A stretch of 64,000 nt of DNA, taken from an uncultured Verrucomicrobiae bacterium. GTDB taxonomy: Bacteria; Verrucomicrobiota; Verrucomicrobiia; Chthoniobacterales; UBA10450. Position 1 is the stretch's first letter, and every line of letters begins with the position of its first letter. The notes below the pieces were generated by a model. That model saw only the letters and a program-made list of their open reading frames with translations, had not been told where the DNA came from and ran no database searches. The translations under genes were made by a program, and so were the position numbers. Below are positions 1,190 to 9,359 of this stretch, in pieces. The stretch is taken from NCBI GenBank assembly GCA_963815455.1, contig CAWFGO010000001.1, positions 288,001 through 352,000 on the forward strand, in the 5' to 3' direction.

Positions 1190-1217
1190 AACTAGTAATC
1201 GCGAAGTCAGTCTGATC

Positions 1218-1433
1218 GCCTAACGCGAAAGAAGTGAGCCACCGCCACCGAAGGCGAGCGGGGTCCGTAGTCTGCCTGCCGCGCCGTCTCGTCTCGCCGT
1301 AGCCGGGACGTAGGCGGAAGCTTTGCGAAGGCGGGTGGTCAGCTTGCCGCGCCGAAAAGGGGTGGAGGCGGGTGGTCATGTTGTCGTGCGCAACGCGCAA
1401 CGGGTGGCGGTTCGCTGCAGTGATGGGTTAGAC
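1218..1433 (-). mobile_element. attC site, enlarged (216 bp) by nested REP-like insertions
   Basis: gcctaac...gttagac ends; inner arms ccgccacc/ggtggcgg as in sister attC sites. Confidence 0.8.
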
Positions 1434-1826
1434 CGTTTTGCGTGCCAACAAATATCCGGGCACAAGGGAAACTGGAATAATCGTGAGCACACAGAGGACA
1501 TTGTACCAAACTGGATACATCGACGCGAAGAAAACGATGAGCAGCGTAGAGACGACGCCGAACACAAGCGTGTTGAGCACGGAATGTGGTCGCGACATGC
1601 GAGCAGTGATGTAAGCGCCGAGCAATGTGAAGGCGATGCCACAGACATAACCGATGACGAGAAATAACGGATCGCTTGCGAGCGTCTGTAGAACCGCTTC
1701 GGGTCCCTGACCGCTTGCGCCACGAAGCGCAACGAAAGCGAACGTGACCGCGGCGGAGACGATGATTGTGCCGATGAGGTCTGTGGCCAGCCCAGCGATG
1801 AGAGCAACGATGCGAATGCGCTTCAC
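1428..1826 (-). CDS. Cassette gene: 4-TM membrane protein
   Basis: 132-aa hydrophobic ORF; stop codon lies within the attC inverse core GTCTAAC. Confidence 0.8.
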   Translation of the reverse strand: MKRIRIVALIAGLATDLIGTIIVSAAVTFAFVALRGASGQGPEAVLQTLASDPLFLVIGYVCGIAFTLLGAYITARMSRPHSVLNTLVFGVVSTLLIVFFASMYPVWYNVLCVLTIIPVSLVPGYLLARKTV

Positions 1827-1832
1827 GGTCTA

Positions 1833-2126
1833 GACCTTATGGCTGCGGACGCGGGGTGAGCGAGCGAACGCAGGGTTGAAAAAAAGAGTGTGTTTGCCGT
1901 TCATATTTTTCGCGGGCTACTCCGGTAAGGGAGCAGAGCCGCACGAACGGCCGGCAGGTGCCGGAAGCGTTCCAGTTTTAAACAACTCGAACAAGCAAAC
2001 ACACCAATGAAAAAAGAACTCTATCTTGGGCTGGATGTCCACAAAGACTGTATCAATTCGCCGGCGGATAACGGAGGAAGGGCGCAAGGGGGAAGTAATG
2101 AGAGCGGTGCGATCAGCAACGACCTG
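1833..2126 (+). mobile_element. IS110-family element remnant (5' non-coding end plus transposase N-terminus) interrupting an attC
   Basis: MKKELYLGLDVHKD at 2007, then EEGRKGEV in a shifted frame and SGAISNDL, typical of the IS110 DEDD N-terminus; truncated at ~2126. Confidence 0.75.
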
Positions 2127-2157
2127 CCGAGCGAGTTGGGTAGAGGTGCATCGCCCG

Positions 2158-2829
2158 TCACTGTTTCCACTTCTGCAATACACGATGAACTGCTTCTTCC
2201 ACGACGGCTCGTGCCTCTGATCGCCCGCGTCCCTTCATCAGGAGCTCGTCGTATTTTGTTTCTTGATGCCGGATATGGGCGATTACAGCAAGTTTGACTG
2301 CCGCCTCATCGAGCACTTTGGCGGACGCCGACCTTCCAATTCTCCCGCTATACTTAAGGCAGGCGTGCTCGGCTATTTCTCGTTCTCTTCCGGCAGGGGC
2401 GCCGGGAAAGAGTTGCCTCACTCGCGCCCCAAATGTTTCCACATATTTGCCGTCGAGTTCCTTCCTTCGAATAGCCTCCCGTTCTCTCCGAGAGATTCTA
2501 ACTTCATTATCAGCCAGACATTCCTGTTCCGCTTTTTCCAACCCTTGCGCTTCGACCAACAGTCCTTGCCTCTCGTAATGCTTCCGGGCGCGACTCCATT
2601 TTAGGACCACCGCAACCAGAGTTGAATGTTTGCGGGCGCGCCGGGTCAAGGCGGCGTTTCCGGACGGTAGAAAAACAAGATGATCGAAATCGGCACATGC
2701 CAGGCATAATGCTCCTTTTTCTTCAGCAAGAGTAATCCATGCCTGGCGACCCAAGTTTTCGCCACATTCGCTGCAGGTGGATTCCCGCGACGAAATAAAG
2801 ACTTTCAACTCAGGAGTCAGCTGCCGCAT
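2158..2829 (-). CDS. Cassette gene: DUF2293 domain protein with N-terminal Cys motifs
   Basis: LFPGAP...IAEHACLKYSGRIGRS...AVIAHIRHQETKYDELL; CSEC/CLAC. Confidence 0.85.
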   Translation of the reverse strand: MRQLTPELKVFISSRESTCSECGENLGRQAWITLAEEKGALCLACADFDHLVFLPSGNAALTRRARKHSTLVAVVLKWSRARKHYERQGLLVEAQGLEKAEQECLADNEVRISRREREAIRRKELDGKYVETFGARVRQLFPGAPAGREREIAEHACLKYSGRIGRSASAKVLDEAAVKLAVIAHIRHQETKYDELLMKGRGRSEARAVVEEAVHRVLQKWKQ

Positions 2830-2832
2830 TAG

Positions 2833-2956
2833 GCCTAACGAGACGGAAGTGAGCTACCGCCACCGAGGGCGAGCGGCGCTCGAAGTGAAGAGGTTTTAGT
2901 CATATCAAAATGTGGACGCACGACGGGTGGCGGTTGGCTCGACTGATTGGTTAGAT
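2833..2956 (-). mobile_element. attC site (124 bp)
   Basis: gcctaac...gttagat; imperfect inverted arms. Confidence 0.9.
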
Positions 2957-3208
2957 CTACTGGTTTCGCTCGAGTGCTTTGGCAATACGCTCAGCAAGCT
3001 CCTCCATCTTCTGCATGTGTTGCAGATGGCGCTCTTTTTCTTCACGATGAAGCTTAGCAGTGGGCGACTTAGATTGACGACGAAATAGCAGGTACAGTAT
3101 CGCGAGAAACAGGAGAATCGGCAAAAAACCGACAAGTGTGTCGAGAAGCTTGTTGTCTTGCGACTGCGCGAGCAGTGAGAGCGTGGAGAGAACGTCTGAC
3201 TTAATCAT
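2957..3208 (-). CDS. Cassette gene: small single-TM protein
   Basis: 83 aa; one hydrophobic segment plus a coiled tail; fills the space between two attC sites. Confidence 0.75.
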   Translation of the reverse strand: MIKSDVLSTLSLLAQSQDNKLLDTLVGFLPILLFLAILYLLFRRQSKSPTAKLHREEKERHLQHMQKMEELAERIAKALERNQ

Positions 3209-3221
3209 AACTGTGAAGTGG

Positions 3222-3344
3222 ATCTAACGAGAACAAGATGAGCGACCGCTGACAAGAGCGGGCTGTGCTTCGAGTTTCAGTGTTGAAGTCATCGGAAATA
3301 AATTGTCGCGCCGGTCAGCGGTTCGCTCGAGCGCCTGGTTAGAC
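3222..3344 (-). mobile_element. attC site (123 bp)
   Basis: atctaac...gttagac. Confidence 0.9.
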
Positions 3345-3383
3345 GGCGTCGCGTGGAGTTTCGCTAGATGTAGCATCGGACCT

Positions 3384-3629
3384 TTAGTCTGTCGGAACGG
3401 CGATCCAAAGGACAGCAATTCCGAAAAGGAGAAAGAGTAGCATCGCAGGCCTGGAGAAACGGCGCAGCGAACCATCGTTCCGGAATAACGCTTGGCGAAC
3501 GGGATCACGGCGTCCGCCACGCCAGAGCCAATGTGGTCCAGCATTGTTGGTCCGAGAATCGACAAACAGCAGCGCGAGTCCTACTGCAGCGATTAGAGCG
3601 GTCACGAGCATCTTGGCTTGGACATGCAT
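3384..3629 (-). CDS. Cassette gene: small 2-TM protein
   Basis: 81 aa with two hydrophobic segments between attC sites. Confidence 0.7.
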   Translation of the reverse strand: MHVQAKMLVTALIAAVGLALLFVDSRTNNAGPHWLWRGGRRDPVRQALFRNDGSLRRFSRPAMLLFLLFGIAVLWIAVPTD

Positions 3630-3634
3630 GAGTC

Positions 3635-3757
3635 GTCTAACGAGAACAAGCTGAGCGACCGCCGCCGAGAGCGAGCGCGGCTTCGACTGAAACTGTTTTA
3701 ATCATCTGAAATCTGAACACACGCCGGGCGGCGGTTCGCTCCAGCGTTTGGTTAGGT
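3635..3757 (-). mobile_element. attC site (123 bp)
   Basis: gtctaac...gttaggt. Confidence 0.9.
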
Positions 3758-4408
3758 CTTGGTCGCACGAACTAGAATAAGTTTATTGTGCTCTGGCTGA
3801 ATGGCGATGCGGCCCGGCTGAGTCTCAACGACTTTCAGTCGCTTCGACACCAGCGCCAACGAAGTCGGCTCGGCGGCTGTATAGCGGACAATAGACTGCG
3901 AAGTCGGCGCTTCGGGCGGACGAATGGGATAGTAAGCAGAGACTCCGCCGGGCAAATGCGGCTGAGTGTAGCGAATCGCTGCGGTAAACTCTGAACGAAC
4001 CGCGCGGAGAGGAATCTCAAACTCCAGAAACGCTAATCTCCAGTCCGCCGGTAAGCCGCGCAGCGGCCCTCCGCCGGACGATCCGGTCGGGCGAAAGACT
4101 CGCTTCCCGACGGTGACGGTCGCGGCTGTGGACGACTTGAGCGAGCCGAAGCTCTGCTCGCCGTGGACGATGATTGGGACCTCAATGGTAATGTGGTCGG
4201 CTTTCTCGCCGAGGAACGCATACTCATCCTTTCCCTGGCGAAACGAGTAGGTGCCGGAAACAACCGAATGTGTGGACTGAACGGCGATATCCACCGTTTC
4301 GGCGACCAATGAAATAGTGCGCCGCGTCGAGTCGATTGCGATCGGGTTCGCGCCAGCGAATCCGATCATGCTGATTCCAATTGCGGCGAGCGTAAGGAAA
4401 ATGCGCAT
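3752..4408 (-). CDS. Cassette gene: secreted hypothetical protein
   Basis: Signal peptide (MRIFLTLAAIG...AGANP); stop within the attC core ACCTAAC. Confidence 0.8.
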   Translation of the reverse strand: MRIFLTLAAIGISMIGFAGANPIAIDSTRRTISLVAETVDIAVQSTHSVVSGTYSFRQGKDEYAFLGEKADHITIEVPIIVHGEQSFGSLKSSTAATVTVGKRVFRPTGSSGGGPLRGLPADWRLAFLEFEIPLRAVRSEFTAAIRYTQPHLPGGVSAYYPIRPPEAPTSQSIVRYTAAEPTSLALVSKRLKVVETQPGRIAIQPEHNKLILVRATKT

Positions 4409-4418
4409 AACTGGAAAG

Positions 4419-4542
4419 ACCTAACGAGACGGAGTTGAGCGACCGCTGGCGGGAGCGAGCGCGGCAAACATCAAGAACGGTTTCATAAGATCAAATCTGG
4501 TCATCACAACGGCCAGCGGTTGGCTCGAGCGATGGGTTAGGC
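4419..4542 (-). mobile_element. attC site (124 bp)
   Basis: acctaac...gttaggc. Confidence 0.9.
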
Positions 4543-5048
4543 GAACGGTTCCATGCCAAGAGACCGAATGCAAAAATCGCGGCCCCGGAACCTGCGAAAA
4601 CCAAGAAATCAACGAACGATGAACCGAACGCAAAATAACGCGCCCGGTCGAATTCGAGCGAGGTTTTGCGCGCCCATGAGGAATAGTAATCCATCCACTC
4701 GCCACGCCAGTAGCTCAACAAATATGAATCGGGCGGTGCGGGCCCGAACTGCTTGATCGCTTCCTCGGGAAAGTGCCCATTCATGAGCTGGATGAAACGC
4801 GCGCTGTGAACTGTTTCTGGCTGCTGCGCAGCCCACGACTGGAACTCTGTCTCTGTGGGCAATGTGCCATGCTGTGCAACCCACGAGTCGATGTACGTTC
4901 GAGCGCTCTCGAAAGCCGTTTGGATCTGGCGGCTGTTGTCCAGGGTGTGATCAACCAACGAATTGCTGAGCAGCGTTAGCGTTCCATAGCCGAGCAAGGC
5001 GATACCAACTACAAAGAGGGGAACCGCTATAAACATACGATGTGCCAT
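4491..5048 (-). CDS. Cassette gene: 2-TM protein with WRGEWxxYYSSW motif (reads into the attC)
   Basis: 185 aa; N- and C-terminal TM segments; homologous to 5674..6171. Confidence 0.8.
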   Translation of the reverse strand: MAHRMFIAVPLFVVGIALLGYGTLTLLSNSLVDHTLDNSRQIQTAFESARTYIDSWVAQHGTLPTETEFQSWAAQQPETVHSARFIQLMNGHFPEEAIKQFGPAPPDSYLLSYWRGEWMDYYSSWARKTSLEFDRARYFAFGSSFVDFLVFAGSGAAIFAFGLLAWNRSPNPSLEPTAGRCDDQI

Positions 5049-5052
5049 ATTC

Positions 5053-5159
5053 GCCTAACGATAACAAGATCAGCCACCGAGCGAAAAACCCCACGGACGG
5101 CAAACAGAATCAGCTAGGCGCATCACAGAATCGAGGTTGGCTGCATCGTTTTGTTAGGT
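5053..5159 (-). mobile_element. attC site, divergent shorter type (107 bp)
   Basis: gcctaac...gttaggt; cagcca/tggctg arms. Confidence 0.8.
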
Positions 5160-5286
5160 GGATGCGGTCGAATCAAGATAGGATAACTCCTATGGTATCA
5201 GTAATAGAAGACGGGAACGACTATTTAATTACTTTTATTAAGAGTCGGCGAAAAAGCGAACAACACAAACTCCCTAAAAAAATGTT

Positions 5287-5511
5287 TCAATGTTCAGACA
5301 TGGGTTTCAGAAAATGAGTTTGTCCTTTTTTCGGAGATTTTATTTTACCAAAAGTGAGCGCAAACTTAACTCGTTCATTAAGGACTTTTTCACTGGCTTC
5401 TTTAGAGCCAATAAAACACCAAATACCACCGCCTTCGGGATCGCGAGATTCGTAGGAAAAATCATCAATCTTCCTCCATTTAGGCAGAGTTGGAATTTTG
5501 CCTTTGGCCAT
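5287..5511 (-). CDS. Cassette gene: small basic hypothetical protein (AT-rich cassette)
   Basis: 74-aa ORF in cassette orientation. Confidence 0.55.
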   Translation of the reverse strand: MAKGKIPTLPKWRKIDDFSYESRDPEGGGIWCFIGSKEASEKVLNERVKFALTFGKIKSPKKGQTHFLKPMSEH

Positions 5512-5555
5512 AGGACTTAATTTATGGACTCAAAAATCACGCAAAGCGAGCATAC

Positions 5556-5679
5556 ATCTAACGAGAACAAGATGAGCGACGGCGGACGAGGGCGCGCGCG
5601 GCTCGGAGTGGAAGTGTGGAAGTCATCTCAAAAGTGAATCGTACAGCGGTCCGTCGTTCGCTCCATCGCATGGTTAGAC
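5556..5679 (-). mobile_element. attC site (124 bp)
   Basis: atctaac...gttagac. Confidence 0.9.
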
Positions 5680-6171
5680 CTTTTTCGCGCCACGGAGTAA
5701 AGGCAATCTGCTCACTAGAAGCAATCCCGCCGCTATGGCGATACCGATGACGCCCGGCCAAGAGAAAGCCCACCAAGAAAGCTGATCGGCGAGCGTATAA
5801 TGCCTGTCCCACGACGAATAGTACTCCGCCCACTCGCCGCGCCAGAACCAGAGTACCCAGCCGCCGGAGGCCGGCCAGCCCTGTGGGTAGCCAGAGTCGA
5901 CTCCCCCACCGGCTGTCGTATCCAACTGATAATCGTAATGGAAGTAGCGCACCGGCAGCGCTTGGCTGATGCCCGCGAGCTCGCCGGCTGATGGCAGCCG
6001 GGCCTCTCTGCTCTGGAACGCCTCAATCGCACTGACGCGATCCTGCATGTCCGCCAAGACCAAGCGATTCTTTGCGACCTGCTTTGGACCCGTTCCGAGC
6101 ACGAGCAATGACAACGCCAGCGTCAATAGAGATGCAGCAAAGATGATCCACCGAGCGATGCGTCTTCCCAC
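5674..6171 (-). CDS. First cassette gene: 2-TM protein with WRGEWxxYYSSW motif
   Basis: 165 aa; starts 2 nt after GTTAGAC; stop within the attC core. Confidence 0.8.
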   Translation of the reverse strand: MGRRIARWIIFAASLLTLALSLLVLGTGPKQVAKNRLVLADMQDRVSAIEAFQSREARLPSAGELAGISQALPVRYFHYDYQLDTTAGGGVDSGYPQGWPASGGWVLWFWRGEWAEYYSSWDRHYTLADQLSWWAFSWPGVIGIAIAAGLLLVSRLPLLRGAKKV

Positions 6172-6173
6172 GG

Positions 6174-6191
6174 GTCTAACGAGAATTAGAC
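6174..6191 (-). mobile_element. attI-like site
   Basis: Minus strand GTCTAATTCTCGTTAGAC: inverted L box, short spacer and GTTRRRY, with no attC hairpin upstream; heads the array. Confidence 0.7.
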
Positions 6192-6284
6192 GAATAAACG
6201 TGTAAATGCACGTGCATTTTGAAATGTACGGAGAGAATGCATTTCTGGCTGGTCATATCGTATCGGATTGAGTAGGGGCATTTT

Positions 6285-6485
6285 ATGCCCGAAGTTGAGC
6301 CTCATTATACCCTATCACTCGTAAACCATCAAACCGGCCAACGTCTCCACCTCGAGTTGGTCGATCTCCCGTTTCCGGCCCGGAGTTATCGGCTGCGAAT
6401 AAATGGTGAATGGGCGAGAAAACTGCCCGTAGCCAGCAAGACCGCCGTCCTGAGACAATTGCGCCAGTGGTGGGTGAGCCATTGA
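6285..6485 (+). CDS. Small hypothetical protein, divergent from the cassette array
   Basis: 66-aa ORF preceded by AGGGG; no recognisable motif. Confidence 0.6.
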   Translation: MPEVEPHYTLSLVNHQTGQRLHLELVDLPFPARSYRLRINGEWARKLPVASKTAVLRQLRQWWVSH

Positions 6486-6575
6486 GGTCAAGGCCTCCTT
6501 CGGCCCCCGGGGGGCTCGACCGGCGGATAAAACCGGTTTGGCTTTCGTTCCGGGTTGTGATTGAACTGGGCAAAC

Positions 6576-9359
<2,784 letters not shown>

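Follow-up and report, generated by a model that had tools for sequence, protein, structure and literature searches.

An open reading frame conserved in start, frame and openness across an attC family of Chthoniobacterales integrons, with a probable role as leader of the next cassette

Short open reading frames (ORFs) have been described in two kinds of integron recombination site. In class 1 integrons, the barrier posed by the attC hairpin can be relieved through termination–reinitiation by a short ORF inside the site, which was proposed to aid the next cassette (Jacquier 2009, as described in the available text of PMC8876359 and PMC11511950). According to the same two texts, such ORFs concern few cassettes, are entered from the preceding stop codon and were still called 'anecdotal' in 2024. 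ORF-11, ORF-17 and ORF-18 of attI1 act in cis and stop at the TAG of the incoming GTTRRRY core (Hanau-Bercot 2002; Papagiannitsis 2017; both as related in PMC8876359). In that account their peptide sequence is unimportant, they help cassettes without an initiation region of their own, and ORF-11, which has a Shine–Dalgarno (SD) motif, serves the first position only. Here we analyze the attC sites of a cassette array in a 64,000-nucleotide (nt) stretch of an uncultured Verrucomicrobiae bacterium (GCA_963815455.1, contig CAWFGO010000001.1, 288,001–352,000; hereafter the window), and those of related genomes. Most of these sites carry an ORF of about 22 amino acids (aa), the mini-ORF, which runs from the center of the site to its core or ends 15 nt before it.

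Judged by their sequence, the ~120-nt sites are attC sites, and the sedentary chromosomal integrons to which they belong are those of one Chthoniobacterales family. In the window they are repeats of 103–120 nt between single minus-strand genes, with CTAAC and GTTAG ends at all seven. The inverse core of attC has the consensus RYYYAAC; the core has the consensus GTTRRRY (PMC8876359). The arms of the stem covary at columns 12/−15, 15/−17, 19/−21, 23/−24 and 26–28/−27 to −29 (mutual information 0.7–1.2 bits, 90–95% complementary, n = 436). The pairing leaves out columns 14 and 21–22; the L''/L' boxes, compensatory changes and the unpaired extra base are all present. IntI recombines attC as a folded bottom strand; the DNA folding z-scores of single sites are unremarkable (−1.3 to +1.2). 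Several arrays of the genome together comprise about 70 of these sites (78 matches to the pattern, 73 candidates). Integron integrase (TIGR02249) scores above the cut-off at three places in the genome, each adjoining another array. No such match lies within the window, and the window array therefore needs an integrase in trans. Besides two intact copies of intI, split or partial copies are found beside arrays (G000 C2:707907-708374, C3:784758-785697 and C1:691661-691942), and one intI in G000 is oriented like its array.

A scan of public genomes yielded at least 160 loci, mostly titled Chthoniobacterales or Verrucomicrobiota. Within the same family, 38 of 39 genomes have the pattern (the unpublished G173, on which no other result here depends, is among the 38). 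In the other families of the order 16 of 261 genomes have it, and 148 of the 150 other Verrucomicrobiota genomes searched lack it. Around two non-Verrucomicrobia bins (41 genomes each) only single matches were obtained, at control level. A few matches come from bins assigned to Acidobacteria, Planctomycetes and other groups, and may reflect misbinning or transfer. Three loci came from viral contigs, with one usable site, which has no ATG.

Sites were collected from four sources: this genome, 20 related genomes (60 regions), the 160 loci of the public scan and the three viral loci. The detector requires only the two ends and L-box complementarity, and the search patterns specified no ATG. It returned 698 matches, 639 after removal of duplicates, of which 628 are at least 85 nt long (622 distinct sequences). 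Being stricter than the count of 73 candidates, it retains 60 sites of this genome. An ATG-led frame that is open to the L' box is found in the frame of the core TAG at 454 of the 628 sites, versus 29 and 33 in the other two frames. In this genome the in-frame ORF is present at 53 of 60 sites (0 and 3 in the other frames). Among labelled same-family genomes, 15 of 16 have 5 to 53 in-frame sites each and the remaining one has it at three of four sites, with 0–4 in the other frames. The commonest spacing, shared by 303 of 583 in-frame ATGs, is 69 nt to the end of the core TAG.

The sites are related by descent, and selection was therefore tested within and between subfamilies. With each subfamily counted once, ATG is the most frame-0-biased of the 64 triplets (41 of 50), and TGA, TAA and TAG are the three least biased. 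The dominant ATG is in frame in 30 of 32 subfamilies with at least three members, at 12 different distances between 42 and 93 nt. The variant test covered 19 of the 27 subfamilies with at least five members, leaving out four without ATG and four with only a short ORF. Departure from the consensus is 4–8% at the ATG and 7% at the A that follows it, as compared with 24–26% at the three preceding bases. Among 801 distinct loop variants, 11 create an in-frame stop where 21.7 ± 3.1 are expected, whereas in the other frames the numbers are 28 for 26.3 and 16 for 12.3 expected. The codon at the start position, compared across 441 members of 17 subfamilies, is ATG in 374, GTG in 26, TTG in 6, ACG in 6, ATA in 5 and CTG in 2. 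Changes of A to G (7%) and of A to C (9%) are equally common in the loop, yet it is GTG, not CTG, that replaces ATG, and the GTG starts are spread over several subfamilies and genomes. Net length changes between anchors that are not multiples of three occur before the ATG in 134 of the 441 members and after it in 37. Of the 34 ATG frames shifted in this way, eight still end inside the site, and the ORF is intact in 369 members. Indel events in the loop are only about half as dense as upstream.

Synonymous changes make up 280 of 771 (257 expected; 230 nearest-neighbor pairs). This excess is slight, indicating that the frame is selected and the peptide hardly at all; purifying selection at the amino-acid level, as for a small protein family, was not seen in this comparison. 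Hairpin pairing was considered as the cause of ATG conservation and rejected, as no base pairs constantly with the ATG in bottom-strand folds and no column covaries with it. The attC ORF is thus very likely selected as an ORF. A first reading of the window, made from its sequence only (the sequence-only reading), had proposed to check whether the ATG, the frame and the avoidance of stops are conserved beyond neighboring positions and other frames; they are, and pairing is not the cause.

A comparison set of 184 unrelated long attC sites from metagenomes gives ATG frames of 46, 22 and 35; ATG ranks 7th and the stops rank 60, 63 and 64 of 64, on small counts. These sites have at most a weak general tendency toward an in-frame ORF. 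Two clusters among unrelated attC sites have a frame-0 ATG ORF in 9 of 11 and 7 of 10 members (L294-L434). In some genomes with the pattern (G187, G215, G222, G101 and G157), some attC loops consist of purine-rich short repeats of the GAATTATGAA, TTGAGATG and AATTAGAAAG types in place of the usual pyrimidine-rich center, and many of these keep an in-frame ATG at 48, 63 or 72 nt.

The ORF ends at the core TAG at 299 of 454 sites and at a core TAA at two. At the others it ends at the L' box, 15 nt earlier (TGA at 152, TAA at one). The stop in the recombination core that the sequence-only reading had assigned to the ORF is therefore right for two thirds of the sites (301 of 454), but one third (153) stop before the core. 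TCA and TGA at L' are compensatory stem variants that interchange freely. After recombination the core TTAG belongs to the incoming cassette, as is likewise described for ORF-11 in the text of PMC8876359, so that the stop is rebuilt at each new junction.

How the next gene is started has to be seen against initiation in the host. The 16S rRNA ends with the usual anti-SD sequence. SD motifs precede 11% of 2,623 crudely called host genes (9–10% in controls). Among 626 confident host starts, SD motifs are found at 13% (9% in controls), and anti-SD pairing is not in excess (18.1% versus 18.5%). Some Verrucomicrobia are listed as SD-scarce in PMC10783764, as far as its accessible part goes. The mini-ORFs do not have an SD of their own: an SD 4-mer is present in 0.3% of the 69-nt class, and positions −4 to −7 are U/A-rich instead. 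The base after the ATG is A at 54% of host starts and at 341 of 388 mini-ORFs. The lack of room for a ribosome-binding site before the cassette genes, to which the sequence-only reading had pointed, is a weak argument, since host genes barely use SD motifs.

As a proxy for the start of the next gene we took the first in-frame start codon of a long ORF. Of the 553 sites whose downstream sequence was long enough, 523 have such a start, and it lies no more than 10 nt past the core in 50% and no more than 20 nt in 68%. The distances peak at 0, 4 and 5 nt, and an SD motif accompanies 4% of these starts. Starts 0–5 nt past the core crowd only in the ORF-bearing family (42%, versus 12% in other frames and 1 of 29 in sister families). 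The 0-nt class is partly due to chance, as the core often reads GTTAGATG and a long ORF begins there in 69 of 128 cases. The two sister families have a GC-rich attC center and carry the ORF at only 3 of 33 sites; their median cassette leader is 23 nt (n = 29), versus 9 nt in the ORF family (n = 494). Sister-family attC sites (L211-L220; f8 and f5) often have lengths that are multiples of three (111, 114 and 120 nt), with an ATG directly behind R'', and their cassettes bring leaders of 16–28 nt of their own.

We propose that the attC ORF is probably a built-in, cis-acting leader, whose translation is suggested by its sequence features: a ribosome would cross the 3' arm of the site and end at the core, and the next gene would then be started. 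On the array mRNA the attC would fold, and the 3' arm of the stem would cover the bases just 5' of the next start codon. A ribosome would initiate in the open loop, either afresh or handed over from an ORF in the left arm or from a cassette gene that reads into the site and ends at the same AUG. It would then traverse the 3' arm, melt the stem and terminate at the core. Where the gap is a few nt, the same ribosome could begin the next gene; at longer gaps a new ribosome could do so on the opened RNA. Reinitiation and RNA unfolding are the two models of coupling reviewed in PMC12548453, in the part available. A hairpin directly after a stop codon hinders reinitiation (PMC7518266, available text), in keeping with a fresh start being needed within the attC. 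The leader would move with the attC of the upstream cassette and the TTAG with the downstream cassette. Leader and TTAG would thus be reunited at every new junction, making translation less dependent on the preceding cassette. About half of the attI sites would give the first cassette the same service.

In predicted array RNA the attC stem persists and the loop is open. The median cost of opening 30 nt around the AUG is 8.1 kcal/mol for mini-ORFs, 11.8 for host starts and 12.4 for cassette starts (120 sites, 150 genes), and the cost for cassette starts drops to a median of 3.5 kcal/mol with a ribosome footprint held at the UAG. In this model, initiation at the loop AUG would be easy, and a ribosome that terminates at the core would make the next start accessible.

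Several observations weigh against the leader. The expectation that the hairpin makes cassette starts less accessible than host starts was not borne out; the two opening costs are close, and a blocking of cassette starts by the hairpin is therefore not established in the model. Within the family the start distance is alike with the ORF (median 8 nt, n = 377) and without it (10 nt, n = 117), and the contrast in leader length with the sister families is one lineage comparison. The gap between stop and start is at most 5 nt at 122, at most 10 nt at 139, at most 20 nt at 236 and more than 20 nt at 141 of 377 sites, and in E. coli and Haloferax almost no reinitiation is left at a gap of ~20 nt (Huber 2023; PMC10666635, as far as available). 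The free interchange of TCA and TGA at L' indicates that the exact position of the stop is not critical. When each distinct event in the alignments is counted, the ORF-loop indels are mostly not multiples of three (74 of 79). Start, frame or openness is lost in 72 of 441 members, whole subfamilies lack the ORF (4 of the 27 with at least five members), and the kinship of the sites means that the counts overstate independence. In class 1 integrons, deleting attC was mostly of little effect on downstream expression (PMC11511950, in its available part). The sequence-only reading had supposed that each attC carries its own leader, so that any cassette is translationally coupled wherever it lands. 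A leader in cis, array-wide and family-wide, is still the best reading, but strict termination–reinitiation cannot serve every cassette, because only 139 of 377 gaps are within 10 nt.

Translation of the ORF could also serve as a cover against polarity, which would shield the 120-nt C-rich and otherwise untranslated stretch from Rho or RNases, with the core stop merely sparing the next gene. All signals of selection are equally compatible with such a cover, and an earlier TGA and long gaps would be tolerated. Rho loading sites are C-rich and G-poor, as is the loop (6649 C versus 4148 G), and two rho-like genes (G000 C1:648413 and C1:1665898) both score slightly below the TIGR00767 cut-off. Polar effects in arrays have been tied to translation and mRNA level, including a case with a 98-nt untranslated stretch (PMC11511950, available text). 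Alone, however, the cover leaves the crowding of cassette starts at 0–5 nt in the ORF family unexplained, as well as the same design at attI, and the ORF spans only the 3' 60% of the site. We consider the cover unlikely as the explanation; it is compatible with the leader and does not exclude it.

It is less likely still that the ATGA persists through common descent or through a constraint unrelated to translation (DNA folding, a protein site or a promoter), with the open frame as a by-product. The attC sites of an array are related and homogenized, the core TAG and the L' box are fixed for recombination, the 69-nt class dominates, and the unrelated long attC sites are weakly biased in the same way. 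Against this, the mutation-level tests within subfamilies are frame-specific, GTG is tolerated whereas CTG, ACG and ATA are not, in-frame ATGs are found at many different distances and the ATG has no pairing partner; in addition, a consensus scan gave no promoter-like match inside any window attC. Finally, a trans-acting role of the ~22-aa peptides as signal, toxin or regulator of integrase or ribosome is very improbable: there are dozens of copies per genome, an N-terminal MT(S/K)T bias and the slight synonymous excess, but the loop amino acids vary freely, the C-terminal half is set by the stem, the length ranges from about 13 to 30 aa, a third of the peptides lack the last five residues, and two peptides that were tried gave no Pfam match.

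To return to the leader, a similar ORF is found where arrays begin. We collected 80 attI-like sites, leaving out one locus of an unpublished genome; a few are probably chance matches. An ATG-led frame ends at the core TAG in 40 of the 80, mostly after 13 aa; this ORF has no SD, and the counts of ATG by frame are 47, 3 and 11. The attI-like sites form an inverted repeat (window 6172-6332; G000 C1:1495182, C1:1718268, C2 and C3 arrays; L224-L293), in which the ATG stays while the bases that would pair with it vary.

Within the attC sites, further frames lead to the loop AUG. Among 388 attC sites with a mini-ORF, 247 have an ATG in their first 20 nt; of these frames 119 join the mini-ORF in frame and 102 stop within 10 nt of its ATG (221 of 247 together). 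A frame-1 stop lies within 10 nt of the mini-ORF ATG at 211 of the 388 sites, as compared with 63 in shuffles, and an ATGA closes frame 2 at 269. Sites whose left-arm ATG is in frame 1 have retained the frame-1 stop more frequently (55 of 55 versus 23 of 41 in the largest subfamily; within-subfamily χ2 24.6), an association that linkage within sub-lineages could inflate. Of 353 upstream genes, 23 enter the site and stop near the ATG, and 40 read through to the frame-0 stop. Tentatively, and with rather more doubt than for the leader itself, the whole array might be an order-independent ribosome relay of promoter, attI leader, cassette, left-arm ORF, loop AUG, core stop and next gene, in which the loop AUG would gather ribosomes from three frames (in frame, by TGA-N-ATG and by ATGA). 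If so, the position gradient assumed in the integron model would have lost its translational component in this lineage. Leaderless cassettes would be well expressed only when they follow an attC from their own family, which would link the design of cassettes to the type of attC.

The window array displays these elements in order; all coordinates below are on the minus strand unless stated. A match to a sigma-70 promoter (TTGATG-N17-TATAAT, 6304..6332) points into the array and, from its position, would be Pc-like. It is the sole match in 1200-6600; shuffles average 2.7, and the match alone is non-significant. The attI-like first site (6172..6217) carries a 13-aa in-frame ORF (MHVHLHVYSSNSR*) from the ATG at 6217 to the core TAG at 6176. 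Its frame is already open from an ATG at 6256, and its 3' motif recurs next to intI genes at other places in the genome. A divergent ORF of 66 aa on the plus strand (6285-6485), at the place expected for intI, has no Pfam or NCBIfam match; the array has a promoter and an attI and lacks an integrase of its own.

The cassette 1 gene (165 aa, 5674..6171) starts with GTG 4 nt past the attI core, ends at the TAA of R'' and has no Pfam match. The attC that follows (120 nt, CTAAC to GTTAG, 5556..5677) contains a 5' relay ORF of 12 aa in its left arm (MERTTDRCTIHF, 5628..5666), whose TGA lies 1 nt ahead of the ATG of the mini-ORF (MTSTLPLRAARALVRRRSSCSR, 5558..5626, stop at the core TAG). Cassette 2 is a low-GC cassette (5158-5557) with an ORF of 74 aa (5287..5511) that starts 46 nt past the core and has no Pfam match, and with a 76-aa ORF on the opposite strand; it may be a gene-poor or regulatory cassette. 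Its attC is of a divergent 103-nt type (5053..5157), with a mini-ORF (MRLADSVCRPWGFSLGG*, 5070..5123) that stops at the TGA of the L' box. The cassette 3 gene (185 aa, 4491..5048), with only a sub-threshold DUF7555 match, starts with ATG 6 nt past the core, runs through R'' and stops 4 nt ahead of the mini-ORF ATG at 4486 in the next attC (120 nt, 4419..4540; mini-ORF MKPFLMFAALAPASGRSTPSR*, 4421..4486, 66-nt class). The products of the genes at 5674-6171 and 4491-5048 belong to an unnamed cassette family with predicted terminal membrane segments; they have in common a 38-nt repeat and a W-x-x-W/Y-R-G-E-W-x-x-Y-Y-S-S-W motif.

The cassette 4 gene (218 aa, 3752..4408) starts with ATG 12 nt past the core, ends at the TAA of R'' and is followed by an attC of 119 nt (3635..3755; mini-ORF MIKTVSVEAALALGGGRSACSR*, 3637..3705). 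The cassette 5 gene (81 aa, 3384..3629; ATG 7 nt past the core) has an attC of 119 nt (3222..3342; mini-ORF MTSTLKLEAQPALVSGRSSCSR*, 3224..3292), and the cassette 6 gene (83 aa, 2957..3208; ATG 15 nt past the core) one of 120 nt (2833..2954; mini-ORF MTKTSSLRAPLALGGGSSLPSR*, 2835..2903). Some window sites have extra in-frame ATGs, upstream at 5671 and 4504 and downstream at 4471. The cassette 7 gene (223 aa, DUF2293, 2158..2829) starts with ATG 5 nt past the core. A plus-strand ORF (2007-2297) occupies the spot where the attC of this cassette is missing and adjoins a degenerate attC-like end at ~1830-1900; its start, MKKELYLGLDVHKD, seems to resemble the N-terminus of an IS110-family transposase. 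The seventh attC (1218..1431) is stretched to 212 nt by an insertion of ~90 nt with a duplicated 24-nt stretch and a palindromic element, which leaves its ATG out of frame at a distance of 160 nt from the TAG. Comparable insertions extend the attC sites of relatives to 143–203 nt. A further cassette after this attC holds a gene of the metallo-beta-lactamase fold (tRNase Z-like) with a twin-arginine-like N-terminus (296-1189).

The sequence-only reading had placed the ATGs at 2903, 3292, 3705 and 5626 at 69 nt from the end of the core TAG and that at 4486 at 66 nt, and had given their peptides; all of these were reproduced. The divergent site at 5053 has, as claimed, its ATG (5123) at 69 nt and a TGA at codon 18, and folds agree that the ATG, said to lie in the variable center, sits in the unpaired center of the site. 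A distance of 5–15 nt from TAG to the next gene is correct for five sites (5, 15, 7, 12 and 6 nt) but not for the site at 5558, where the 74-aa ORF starts at 46 nt. The seventh attC (1220-1431), the attI-like site (6172-6217) and the promoter match (6332-6304) had been missed.

Literature searches, largely of open-access texts without supplements, turned up neither an attC ORF conserved in frame across a whole family nor any account of these integrons, and Jacquier 2009 may itself contain an attC-ORF survey of its own. The array-wide feature had been thought undescribed; short attC ORFs were in fact reported before, as anecdotal cases, and what is new is the fixation across a family. The class of mechanism is known. 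The fixation across an attC family, the SD-free host, the attI analogue and the three-frame hand-over were not found in print in these searches.

These results address how genes deep in long chromosomal arrays are translated and what the variable center of attC is for. Throughout a whole family of abundant soil bacteria without SD use, a recombination site appears to be under population-level selection for a second, translational code, and a sister lineage meets the same need with ordinary leaders. We predict that the expression of a cassette after transfer depends on attC type. The attC leader could provide a natural SD-free coupling part for synthetic operons. For annotation, 22-aa 'hypothetical proteins' of this kind are to be regarded as parts of attC sites.

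The comparison with known systems can now be drawn. Unlike the attC ORFs of class 1 integrons, the ORF described here is present at about three quarters of the sites, in a fixed frame, with purifying selection on start, frame and stops. Its start codon sits mid-loop, ~48 nt from where the upstream gene usually stops, and its host initiates without SD motifs. ORF-11 has its direct analogue in the 13-aa ORF that about half of the family's attI-like sites carry. Judging by the evolution of the attC mini-ORF, there, too, the start and the frame appear to matter and the amino acids do not. In contrast to ORF-11, the leader has no SD and is repeated at nearly every junction. With the attC sites of other sedentary chromosomal integrons the family shares the R''/R' and L''/L' boxes, the covarying stem, the variable center and the arrays next to intI, but its variable center holds a selected start codon and an open frame, whereas the 184 other long attC sites are weakly biased at most. 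As in known cases of translational coupling, upstream translation would open structure or hand ribosomes to a nearby start (PMC12548453, PMC10666635 and PMC7518266, in their available parts). Here, in contrast, a dedicated dummy ORF that forms part of a DNA recombination site would act as the coupling partner, and recombination would form the pair anew.

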